In this document: positions 5,950-7,830 of the stretch, piece after piece
Position numbering within the stretch: the stretch's first letter is position 1
Layout: each line of letters opens with the position of its first letter
From: Perna viridis
Lineage: Eukaryota
Length of the DNA stretch: 64,000 bases
Assembly: GCA_037379345.1 (NCBI GenBank)
Contig: CM074511.1
Location: 16,554,001-16,618,000 of the forward strand
Direction of reading: 5' to 3'
Program-made: the position numbers and the translations under genes
The notes under the pieces: model-generated
Database searches by the model: none
Told to the model about the DNA's origin: nothing
The model's input: only the letters and a program-made list of their open reading frames with translations

Positions 5950-7830
5950 ATGCGTCAAAAGAAGTTAGTTTGGGCCGTTGTCGCAGTCCTAACAGTGTTG
6001 ATAGTGCACCTGAAGCTACAAACGATTACTAAAGCTTTCTATAGCCAAGATGATAAACAAAGATCTGAAAAAAGCTTATCGCGTATGATTGATGTGATCG
6101 ATGAGATAAACGAAAGAAGATCAAAGAATGTCGGAGATGACCGTAAACAGGACAATTTAATTGAAATCGAACAATATTACATATTTTTACAAAGAATTCA
6201 GGACTTCCAAAATGTTAGTAGAATCCATACAATTTGTGAATTCGGATTTGGAAGTGGACAAAATGCTGCAATATTTCTAACTGAGATTGATCCTGAATTA
6301 TATATAGTATTTGACAAATCTGCAGATCACCTGCTTAATACTGATGAGTTTAAACATCTGAAAGAAAAATTTTACAAAAGTAAAATAAATATAACCAGCG
6401 TTGACACTTTCGAAAATATGGATGACAATGTGTCATGTGATCTGATCCATGTAAACGCAGAACTGATTATCTCGGACCTGATGAGAGTCATGAAAAACTT
6501 GTTTTACATCGCGTCTGAAAGAAATTTACTCCTTATAAGTAGCAGGAATGAAGCATTGCGTGGTGTAATGAATGGGATTGAGTTTTTAAAACGCTGCAAT
6601 GTTGTGAATGATATTAAAAAATACATTTCCAAGAGCAAACTGGAAATTTCGTGGTACAGTGGAAGTTTCAAACCACCTGTTAGCGATTTCGTGTTCTTGA
6701 ATAAAACCTTTTGTAACCCATTTTTCGAGAAAAAGAACGGGGTTTGTGTCAAATCAGTGTTAAAACCTTGTTCAACAACAAGTAATGAATGTTTTTATAA
6801 CAGAGAAATTGGAGTTGTTTCAATATCTTGTGAAGTATGGCGCAAAGCACAAAAATCCGAAAAAAACATTTGGGTTTCAGCCGCAGTCAATTCTGACCGC
6901 AATGCGGGTCATACATTGTCGTTCAATAACTATCAAGATATACCTAAACATCTTGGTGACGTTCTTGAACTTGGCTCTGGTCCTTTTACTCAGTCACAGA
7001 GTATACTAAGCACTAAGACGGCTGATAGTATAACACTGGTTGAGCCGATGGCGTTCCAGTACATTCAATCTGTGCAGCACTGTTTTTATAAGAACGGAAT
7101 GTTTAAGAATCTCCCAACGACGATTTGCTCAATACCTGCAGAGGAGTTCCGAACGAATGTAACCTTTGACACTGTGATCATGATAAATGTTATTGAACAC
7201 GTTTACGACGCACTCCCTCTGTTGAATGCTGCTGTGCAATTGGTAAAAGTTGGAGGGTTGTTTATTTGGCAAGAGAAAGCCTGGGACAAATTGATTGGTA
7301 TGCCTCATCCGGGTAGTCCAATTCTTGATTTTTATTTGCATCCCATTCGGATCAAAACGCCTATTCTTAAACAAGTTATTTCAGGTTTTGAAGAAATATT
7401 TGCTTCGACTGATGCACCAGAACTGCGAAAATATGGCCACCAGGGTATTTATTTTATTGGACGAAAGCGTAACGATCCTATGCACTCCGTTTTACCAAAG
7501 CGCAAACCATGTACACAAAACCGTTCCAGTGGCAGTGTTGTCATCATATTCACGGCTCCATCAAACGACACTGTTTCGCTTGATCAAATTAAGATTGCTG
7601 AAAACAGTTCTTACACGAAATCAATTATTTTAATTCTGACCAGTGCATTTAAAAATGCTTCTCTATCAAAATTGATACGATTCAGCAAAATTAAAGCTGT
7701 GGTATCCCATCACAATATACAACAATGGCAGAAGCAAATACTTCTGTTCACTACACCATGTGGCGTCATTCAACCAACCCTAACCGATAACATTCTTCAG
7801 ACATTTTCAACTGTGTGTATTGGTCAATAA
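5950..7830 (+). CDS. Type II membrane protein with two class I SAM-dependent methyltransferase-like domains (626 aa, single coding exon)
   Basis: N-terminus MRQKK followed by hydrophobic LVWAVVAVLTVLIVHL (signal anchor). Domain 1 has ICEFGFGSG...FD...CDLIHVN (Methyltransf_24-like). A Cys-rich linker follows. Domain 2 has WRKAQKSE...VLELGSGP...LVEP...FDTVIMINVIEHVYD...LVKVGG (Methyltransf_11/23-like). There is a splice acceptor tttttcag at 5881-5888 before the ATG and AATAAA overlapping the stop (7826-7831). Confidence 0.88.
   Translation: MRQKKLVWAVVAVLTVLIVHLKLQTITKAFYSQDDKQRSEKSLSRMIDVIDEINERRSKNVGDDRKQDNLIEIEQYYIFLQRIQDFQNVSRIHTICEFGFGSGQNAAIFLTEIDPELYIVFDKSADHLLNTDEFKHLKEKFYKSKINITSVDTFENMDDNVSCDLIHVNAELIISDLMRVMKNLFYIASERNLLLISSRNEALRGVMNGIEFLKRCNVVNDIKKYISKSKLEISWYSGSFKPPVSDFVFLNKTFCNPFFEKKNGVCVKSVLKPCSTTSNECFYNREIGVVSISCEVWRKAQKSEKNIWVSAAVNSDRNAGHTLSFNNYQDIPKHLGDVLELGSGPFTQSQSILSTKTADSITLVEPMAFQYIQSVQHCFYKNGMFKNLPTTICSIPAEEFRTNVTFDTVIMINVIEHVYDALPLLNAAVQLVKVGGLFIWQEKAWDKLIGMPHPGSPILDFYLHPIRIKTPILKQVISGFEEIFASTDAPELRKYGHQGIYFIGRKRNDPMHSVLPKRKPCTQNRSSGSVVIIFTAPSNDTVSLDQIKIAENSSYTKSIILILTSAFKNASLSKLIRFSKIKAVVSHHNIQQWQKQILLFTTPCGVIQPTLTDNILQTFSTVCIGQ

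Follow-up and report, generated by a model that had tools for sequence, protein, structure and literature searches.

A Perna viridis protein, probably reduced from a GT64-bearing two-methyltransferase enzyme, is a candidate luminal glycoconjugate methyltransferase

We analysed a 64,000-nt stretch of the Perna viridis genome (assembly GCA_037379345.1, contig CM074511.1, positions 16,554,001 to 16,618,000, forward strand), hereafter the window, and followed up an intronless open reading frame (ORF) at 5950..7830 (+), whose 626-aa product is designated P0001. On balance, we favour the reading that P0001 is a luminal glycoconjugate methyltransferase with a single active site, reduced from an enzyme that carries two methyltransferase domains (MT1 and MT2), a small third domain (D3) and a GT64 glycosyltransferase domain, in that order, the last of which is missing from P0001. 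The ORF is a single unbroken frame of 626 codons; when the bases of the window were shuffled 20 times, no stop-free frame exceeded 164 aa. The same protein is found in an independent 626-aa record, P0178, which differs by L21Q alone and has an identical C-terminal end.

A reduced state of P0001 is suggested by its relatives. A first search returned 11 matches: a piece of P0001 itself, seven Mytilus proteins, and three others. An exhaustive search with an E limit of 0.001 yielded 556 representatives; nearly all of the 150 best, which were taken further, match MT2 only. The long relatives have the order PF13578 (MT1), MT2, domain 3, and GT64 (PF09258), and PF13578, MT2, and PF09258 occur together in the Mytilus proteins P0004, P0005, and P0013 and in P0003. 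P0001 stops at the alignment column where the Mytilus relatives enter GT64, its stop codon (7828–7830) overlapping an AATAAA at 7826..7831 (+); P0009 and P0010 stop there too. Neither PF09258 nor a GT-A domain with a DxD-type motif was present in P0001. A separate GT64 exon or broken GT64 remnant elsewhere in the window was rejected, as tblastn and hmmsearch --max in six frames found none (best hidden Markov model (HMM) E 0.27). Positions 7401–7900 contained no consensus donor-like site, and the frames beyond the P0001 stop close soon. Mytilus proteins labelled 'EXT2', 'EXTL3', or 'GT64 domain-containing' (among them VDI52484.1, CAG2188319.1, and CAG2255617.1) resemble P0001 in their anchor–MT1–MT2–D3 order, belong to the same clade, and share 37–45% identity with it; unlike P0001, they have kept GT64 and an intact MT1. 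Judged by domain content, these are not true exostosins, since two methyltransferase domains stand ahead of GT64. In Mytilus coruscus, where several paralogues are labelled EXT2 or EXTL3, P0005, P0008, P0182, and P0225 share a contig size of 1,592,438 and P0216 extends from one copy to its neighbour, a pattern suggestive of tandem arrays.

The AlphaFold model of P0001, built on a 60-sequence alignment, had a mean pLDDT of 90.1 and contained two Rossmann folds, in agreement with the preliminary description, which had recognised two class I methyltransferase-like domains. The two come from different families instead of being tandem copies: an internal duplication was rejected at a profile–profile probability of 4.5%, and MT1 and MT2 are only remotely related. 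The implied presence of two working domains did not hold up either. MT1 (aa 46–241; 6085..6672, +) was recognised by family HMM, alignment, and fold as a degenerate Methyltransf_24 / cation-dependent O-methyltransferase fold. It scores 70 bits on the family HMM, compared with 235–326 for full-length relatives, and keeps 20 of the 44 near-invariant MT1 columns, of which each of 33 relatives keeps 39–44. Its identity to MT1 of Mytilus P0004 is 28% (72% for P0003), and its terminal branch in a quick tree measures 9.77 against a median of 0.091. No PF13578 match was found in P0001 at E up to 1, whereas relatives match at 1e-13 to 1e-17. The near-invariant predicted metal ligands D199, D227, and D228 (P0004 numbering) correspond to N169, S197, and S198 in P0001. 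We infer from spacing and motif position that these three residues are metal ligands; their spacing fits the Mn ligands D136, D162, and N163 of an Anaplasma O-methyltransferase (PMC4636158), a solved cation-dependent enzyme that superposes on MT1 (structure match 4oa5). The accessible part of PMC10172623 contains nothing on metal ligands. MT1 of P0001 looks catalytically dead in sequence. Motif I (E97, G99, and G103) and D122 are retained, so MT1 may still bind S-adenosylmethionine (SAM) or S-adenosylhomocysteine.

In a structure search, residues 36–245 matched COMT-type and other methyltransferases at Z 15–17, with the COMT-type enzymes tied with other class I enzymes. MT1 thus shares its fold with COMT/CCoAOMT-type enzymes, SpnH, MeT1, and TylF, and its intact relatives carry an acidic metal-ligand pattern, but identity to these enzymes is only 8–19% and P0001 is without the ligands. 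COMT-type enzymes and SpnH, MeT1, and TylF are soluble and are not known to be fused to GT64.

MT2 (aa 264–512; 6739..7485, +) appears intact, judging by PF08242 and column conservation; it is a class I SAM-dependent methyltransferase whose family is uncharacterised. PF08242 matched P0001 at E=2e-6 with 28.8 bits, just under the cut-off of 30. All 24 MT2 columns conserved at ≥90% in 160 relatives are kept, as are 46 of the 48 conserved at ≥70%; E340, G342, G344, D407, N413, and H417 of the MT2 motifs are retained, and two conserved Arg positions are altered (V296 and K443). MT2 identity to Mytilus P0004 is 53% (73% for P0003). The predicted MT2 fold is Rossmann-like, of the seven-strand class I type, with pLDDT mostly >90, and residues 277–508 match 5ufm (Z 14.8, root-mean-square deviation (rmsd) 3.5, 200 residues aligned). 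Other searches were less specific. No solved relative of P0001 was found by phmmer in PDB at E up to 1; P0004 and the family profile A5 retrieved exostosins only among solved structures, and the bacterial MT2 profile retrieved 44 generic methyltransferases. The ESM Atlas search returned generic bacterial and phage methyltransferase clusters only, and the four NCBIfam matches to P0001 were all far below cut-off.

The last part of the protein is a small, predicted alpha/beta domain (domain 3; aa 517–626; 7498..7827, +), delimited by alignment and model, that the preliminary description had not reported. It is common to Mytilus and a few marine relatives, has no Pfam match and no assigned function, and is directly followed by GT64 in Mytilus. 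An origin as a duplicated GT64 half is no more than a weak lead, the likeness being slight and to the start of GT64 only (probability 1.2%, E 0.044).

The N-terminus of P0001 fits a type II layout, with a basic tail, one hydrophobic helix, a stem, and a downstream catalytic domain, as judged by hydropathy and the model. The basic tail (aa 1–5) and hydrophobic segment (aa 6–21) lie at 5950..6012 (+), and the helical stem (aa 22–45), part of a helix that spans residues 2–60 in the AlphaFold model, at 6013..6084 (+); this part of the earlier account was borne out. The best 19-residue Kyte–Doolittle mean is 2.11, starting at residue 6, and a second window, at residue 421 within domain 2, barely exceeds 1.6. 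With a possible −3/−1 cleavage pattern at A29, the segment is compatible with both a type II signal anchor and a cleavable signal peptide. N-terminal anchors were also found in Mytilus P0004, P0182, and P0183. The reported Cys-rich linker was confirmed as well: the Cys-rich segment (aa 245–294; 6682..6831, +) aligns, by alignment and family consensus, to the second half of the epidermal growth factor (EGF)-like unit that precedes domain 2 in eukaryotic relatives, and is probably its remnant. Five of the 13 Cys residues of P0001 fall in residues 255–294. Teneurin-like EGF Pfam matches occur ahead of domain 2 in relatives; P0001 itself has no EGF Pfam match. By crude rules applied to a set with many fragments, an N-terminal hydrophobic segment was detected in 51 and an EGF-like Cys motif in 63 of the 116 non-prokaryote-like matches, and neither in the 33 members of the prokaryote-like clade. 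The confinement of both features to proteins outside that clade is consistent with adaptation of an enzyme of bacterial type to secretion. The many N-x-S/T sequons that had been claimed turned out to be no more than chance (nine, where shuffled sequences averaged 5.3 with sd 2.1; p=0.065), and sequon enrichment was dropped as evidence.

The link to glycans comes from the company that the domains keep. GT64 of the relatives matches EXTL3, EXTL2, and EXT2 at Z 23–25 with an rmsd of about 2, and an acidic DDD-type motif is present in 29 of the 33 GT64-bearing proteins. GT64 enzymes of the EXT/EXTL2 type transfer alpha-HexNAc (N-acetylhexosamine). A full MT1 was accompanied by GT64 in 12 of 14 proteins among the matches of the GT64-less P0001 query, and in 25 of 28 when the matches of a GT64-bearing query were added; P0008 (partial MT1, no GT64) fell under the length threshold of this count. 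A glycosyltransferase domain was found in 17 of the 30 representatives scanned, a biased sample picked mostly for length. Fusion partners in 12 scanned proteins included GT7, GT2, GT10, GT31, GT34, PF03407, DUF273, and an NDP (nucleoside diphosphate)-sugar epimerase, and GT8, GT4, and GT9 were further partners among the 30; in CAZy numbering we take PF03407 to be GT77, PF01762 to be GT31, and glycosyltransferase group 1 to be GT4. The fusions to GT7, GT10, GT31, GT34, and GT77-type domains belong to algal and marine relatives. MT1, MT2, and GT64 are shuffled into several orders among the relatives, and P0017 has a TylF sugar O-methyltransferase domain in the MT1 slot. DUF273 is fused to GT64 and MT1 in P0187 (below the Pfam cut-off) and P0189 (at the cut-off); in C. 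elegans it is found in clusters of putative glycosylation genes (PMC7614267).

The bacterial relatives were assessed with a profile of 26 prokaryote-like MT2 proteins, which identified 64 loci in GTDB genomes. Using crude gene calls, we scanned 135 proteins, namely both immediate neighbours of every match and, if >360 aa, the match itself. By hand tally, a glycosyltransferase, polysaccharide-export, or NDP-sugar gene was fused (eight loci) or adjacent in 42 of the 64 loci. The tally omits plain ABC transporters, acyltransferases, and sulfotransferases, and L034 was counted on a weak match. MT1 and GT64 had one weak match each beside bacterial MT2 in the 64 loci, and a PF13578 gene adjoined MT2 at two loci, L013 and L055. 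Proteins of ~3000 aa combining MT2 with several glycosyltransferase and methyltransferase domains were encoded at L004:6843-16430 (where TPR is also present), L005:7959-16748, L006:5139-13928, and L007:6852-16754; at L005 and L006, the giant gene comes after the flagellar cap gene fliD, which suggests flagellar glycosylation. At L015, L019, and L035, in alphaproteobacterial bins, another methyltransferase gene of similar size directly precedes the MT2 gene.

Taken together, we propose the following mechanism. P0001 would enter the secretory pathway via its N-terminal hydrophobic segment and face the Golgi lumen, where MT2 would bind SAM and methylate one of the sugars in the glycan of a glycoprotein or glycolipid, most likely at a hydroxyl, the acceptor being suggested by fusions and gene neighbours. 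P0001 would be the reduced form of an MT1–MT2–D3–GT64 enzyme that is intact in Mytilus, in which GT64 may add a sugar, probably alpha-HexNAc as in EXT and EXTL2, and a metal-dependent MT1 may cap that sugar by O-methylation, as MT1–GT64 co-occurrence suggests. In P0001, MT1 may be left as a scaffold or binding domain with MT2 working alone, as in the stand-alone anchor–EGF–MT2 proteins of protists. The joint loss of GT64 and of the MT1 metal site is what MT1–GT64 coupling would predict, albeit in a single case. We infer the luminal location, the glycan acceptor, O-methylation over N- or carboxyl methylation, and the MT1–GT64 coupling. The luminal glycan enzyme of the preliminary description is thus supported by the Mytilus GT64 fusion, the other fusions, the bacterial context, and the distribution of anchor and EGF motif, with one apparently active domain in place of two.

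Several observations weigh against this reading. P0001 is without GT64, the domain that gives the strongest glycan link, and GT64 occurs in only 26 of the 168 MT2-bearing representatives (of 176 held). The listed MT2 structure matches are toxoflavin N-methyltransferase, NRMT1, and an archaeal methyltransferase, with no sugar enzyme among them, so the predicted structure does not identify the MT2 acceptor; all MT2 relatives are without a tested function. For MT1, sugar methyltransferases only tie with generic ones as structural matches (SpnH Z 15.2–15.9, MeT1 Z 15.5), P0001 has no match to the TylF family PF05711, and the ligand mapping by spacing and motif position has no printed structural alignment behind it. 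The hydrophobic segment is short, and the independent copy P0178 carries a Gln inside it. No glycan gene adjoins MT2 at 22 of the 64 bacterial loci, several loci are near-duplicates, and the tally has no control methyltransferase family; the bacterial context therefore supports, and does not prove, a glycan acceptor. Finally, P0001 had been offered as a candidate for mollusc glycan O-methylation, with methyl-mannose and methyl-galactose as the sugars mentioned, and it is not shown to be the general mollusc enzyme for these, the named animal relatives being from Mytilus only. The named matches in the best 150 of 556 included nothing from a gastropod, oyster, or nematode; this is weak evidence of absence and argues against a general mollusc enzyme.

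The alternative that survives best, although we consider it unlikely, keeps the glycan and changes the chemistry: MT2 would methylate a non-hydroxyl group, either a uronic acid carboxyl or the amine on an aminoethylphosphonate or phosphoethanolamine substituent. N-methyl-aminoethylphosphonate and glucuronic acid (GlcA) are indeed known from mollusc N-glycans (PMC8699351; PMC6994554). Tandem phosphoethanolamine N-methyltransferases (PMTs) of plants and nematodes resemble P0001 in having two class I domains per chain, and PMTs head both the Foldseek list and the bacterial-clade profile search (E 1.4e-6). BioC, a carboxyl methyltransferase, is also listed in the profile and structure searches. 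However, the Foldseek matches to PMTs have a TM (template modelling) score of about 0.25, an rmsd of 16–22 Å, and 10–12% identity and reflect the two-domain layout only, and the profile match spans 48 positions of the generic core. In nematode PMT, one domain is vestigial, and PMTs are not known to have an anchor or a glycosyltransferase fusion. The fusions of the MT2 family are to sugar transferases, bar one weak LicD match in one relative.

We rank below it, as improbable, a luminal or secreted methyltransferase that acts on a non-glycan substrate, be it protein, lipid, or small molecule, its role having changed after GT64 was lost. With GT64 gone, MT1 degenerate, the two conserved Arg positions changed, listed MT2 structure matches that are not sugar enzymes, and an MT2 branch of 0.83 against at most 0.19 for the named Mytilus copies, P0001 might have drifted to a new substrate; yet the 24 near-invariant MT2 columns that it keeps include family-specific ones outside the SAM motifs, and bacterial stand-alone MT2 genes still adjoin glycan genes. 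A decaying or catalytically silent paralogue, whether an incipient truncated pseudogene or a regulatory or lectin-like protein, is very unlikely: the loss of GT64 and the divergence of MT1 relative to MT2 would suit it, but the frame stays open over all 626 codons, model confidence is high along the whole chain, MT2 is selectively conserved, and the same end is found in P0178 and in P0009, the sister of P0001 in the MT2 tree. Algal or bacterial contamination of the assembly can be dismissed with near certainty. The lack of introns and the algal or marine nearest non-mussel relatives would suit it, but the ORF nests with three Mytilus species whose copies lie on 0.1–1.6 Mb contigs, stands behind an acceptor-like site in AT-rich animal DNA, and has a coding GC content of 37% in a window of about 28–37%.

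The origin of the luminal glycoconjugate methyltransferase proposed here was estimated from a quick, unrooted MT2 phylogeny. P0001 pairs with P0009 (SH-aLRT 96) within a clade holding three Mytilus species (SH-aLRT 99), which is nested among multi-domain proteins, with a Tetraselmis-containing clade next to it (SH-aLRT 88). Identity between Tetraselmis and Mytilus is 54% for MT1 and 52% for MT2; Prymnesium and Mastigamoeba are other eukaryotes among the named relatives. The intronless frame and its nesting near algal proteins suggest gene transfer, probably from a marine microeukaryote into an ancestor of bivalves. An origin in a phage, plasmid, or giant virus was rejected on the sets searched: tblastn against a phage set and a plasmid set gave no match, and viral models gave generic matches only. 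In prasinophytes, scales and the Tetraselmis theca contain Golgi-made 2-keto sugar acids, with 5-O-methylated Kdo (3-deoxy-D-manno-oct-2-ulosonic acid) in scales (PMC10762512). We tentatively extend the proposal, while leaning against its full form, to a scenario in which bivalves took a Golgi 'add-and-cap' enzyme from microalgae or protists, expanded it, and split its jobs, with P0001 keeping the second methyltransferase only. The acquired enzyme, with two unrelated methyltransferases and GT64, might then build and methylate distinctive glycan ends of bivalves, for example methylated alpha-GalNAc (N-acetylgalactosamine), fucose, or GlcA. If true, no earlier gene family for glycan O-methylation would be known from animals, and MT2 would be a new glycan-methylating family common to bacteria, protists, and bivalves.

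Known systems offer partial parallels. The plant DUF579/GXMT enzymes are Golgi proteins of type II topology and use luminal SAM to O-methylate glycans. As glycan methyltransferases (named in PMC10762512), they are a functional analogue, from a different family, of P0001 as read here; DUF579 is not one of the six Pfam families that P0001 matched with an E limit of 1. In the chlorovirus PBCV-1, the A064R/A061L system comprises a glycosyltransferase–methyltransferase fusion that builds and O-methyl-caps a glycan end and a second methyltransferase that acts next, and it serves as a working model for the full-length MT1–MT2–GT64 family; it differs in being viral and rhamnose-specific, with GT34-like and novel glycosyltransferase domains (PMC9614988). 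A viral fold search with P0001 gave no match above 17% identity, the PBCV-1 proteins not having been compared directly. Animals methylate glycans enzymatically, as illustrated by the starfish sialate 8-O-methyltransferase activity (cited in PMC6994554), and a putative SAM transporter, samt-1, is linked to glycan methylation in C. elegans (PMC7614267). By association, P0001 rather probably acts like a Golgi glycan methyltransferase while being a member of no characterised one.

The surroundings of the gene are those of animal DNA, as indicated by an intron-split SLC6 transporter gene in the same window (exons at 41201–41758 and 46636–46971, +; best solved match glycine transporter 2). A polypyrimidine tract followed by AG, a probable splice acceptor, lies at 5876..5888 (+), 61 nt 5′ of the ATG. 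From the acceptor-like AG at 5888 to the start codon at 5950 there is no ATG, so the coding sequence is probably all in one exon, probably preceded by a spliced 5′ untranslated region. Tandem repeats lie just upstream of the gene (4999–5163, period 34; 5727–5794, period 2) and elsewhere in the window (26707–27024, period 158; 62381–62738, period 90). A basic 260-codon frame behind an acceptor-like site at 36825–37607 (+) has 19 KR pairs, nine of them RxKR, whose spacing resembles a repeated prohormone or furin-processed precursor; Pfam gave no match. A Cys-rich frame at 26152–26505 (+) weakly resembles prokineticin in Pfam (E 0.0012, short of the cut-off), and two neighbouring frames at 17630–18283 (−) match the rva_4 integrase core, pointing to an interrupted mobile-element gene. 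A 208-aa coiled-coil frame at 181–807 (−), for which Pfam gives weak coiled-coil matches only, is presumably similar to a retrotransposon first ORF.

Knowledge of O-methylated glycans in molluscs goes back to the 1970s (PMC8699351). Vertebrates lack these glycans, which lectins of innate defence target (PMC6272458). Oyster N-glycans carry 3-O-methyl-GalNAc, 3- or 4-O-methyl-fucose, and methyl-mannose; the methylated glycans are specific to each species, and they may modulate how enteric viruses bind to blood-group-like glycans (PMC10301044). Mytilus has 4-O-methyl-GlcA on branched fucose (PMC9300197, PMC6994554). These oyster and Mytilus sugars are therefore as good candidates as methyl-mannose and methyl-galactose. 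Nematode glycan methyltransferases 'remain to be identified' according to a 2023 paper (PMC7614267), and no enzyme for mollusc glycan methylation is named in the accessible parts of the open literature consulted on the topic. The MT1–MT2–GT64 family has no description in the titles and abstract starts of the open literature on GT64/methyltransferase proteins (20 of 23 papers) or bivalve gene transfer (12 of 12); subscription papers and supplements could hold one. Golgi glycan methyltransferases and glycosyltransferase–methyltransferase fusions are already known kinds, whereas no description was found of this family, of its presence in an animal, or of the variant with one domain that looks dead.

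The family offers concrete constructs, namely the intact Mytilus enzyme with two methyltransferases and GT64, and P0001 as a natural MT1-disabled control for telling the roles of the domains apart, and it suggests that the Mytilus proteins labelled EXT2 or EXTL3 are mislabelled. It may also exemplify the passage of glycosylation machinery from plankton to the animals that filter it. If limited to bivalves, it would explain only part of invertebrate glycan methylation; for shellfish, it is a testable candidate for the glycan-methylating enzymes.

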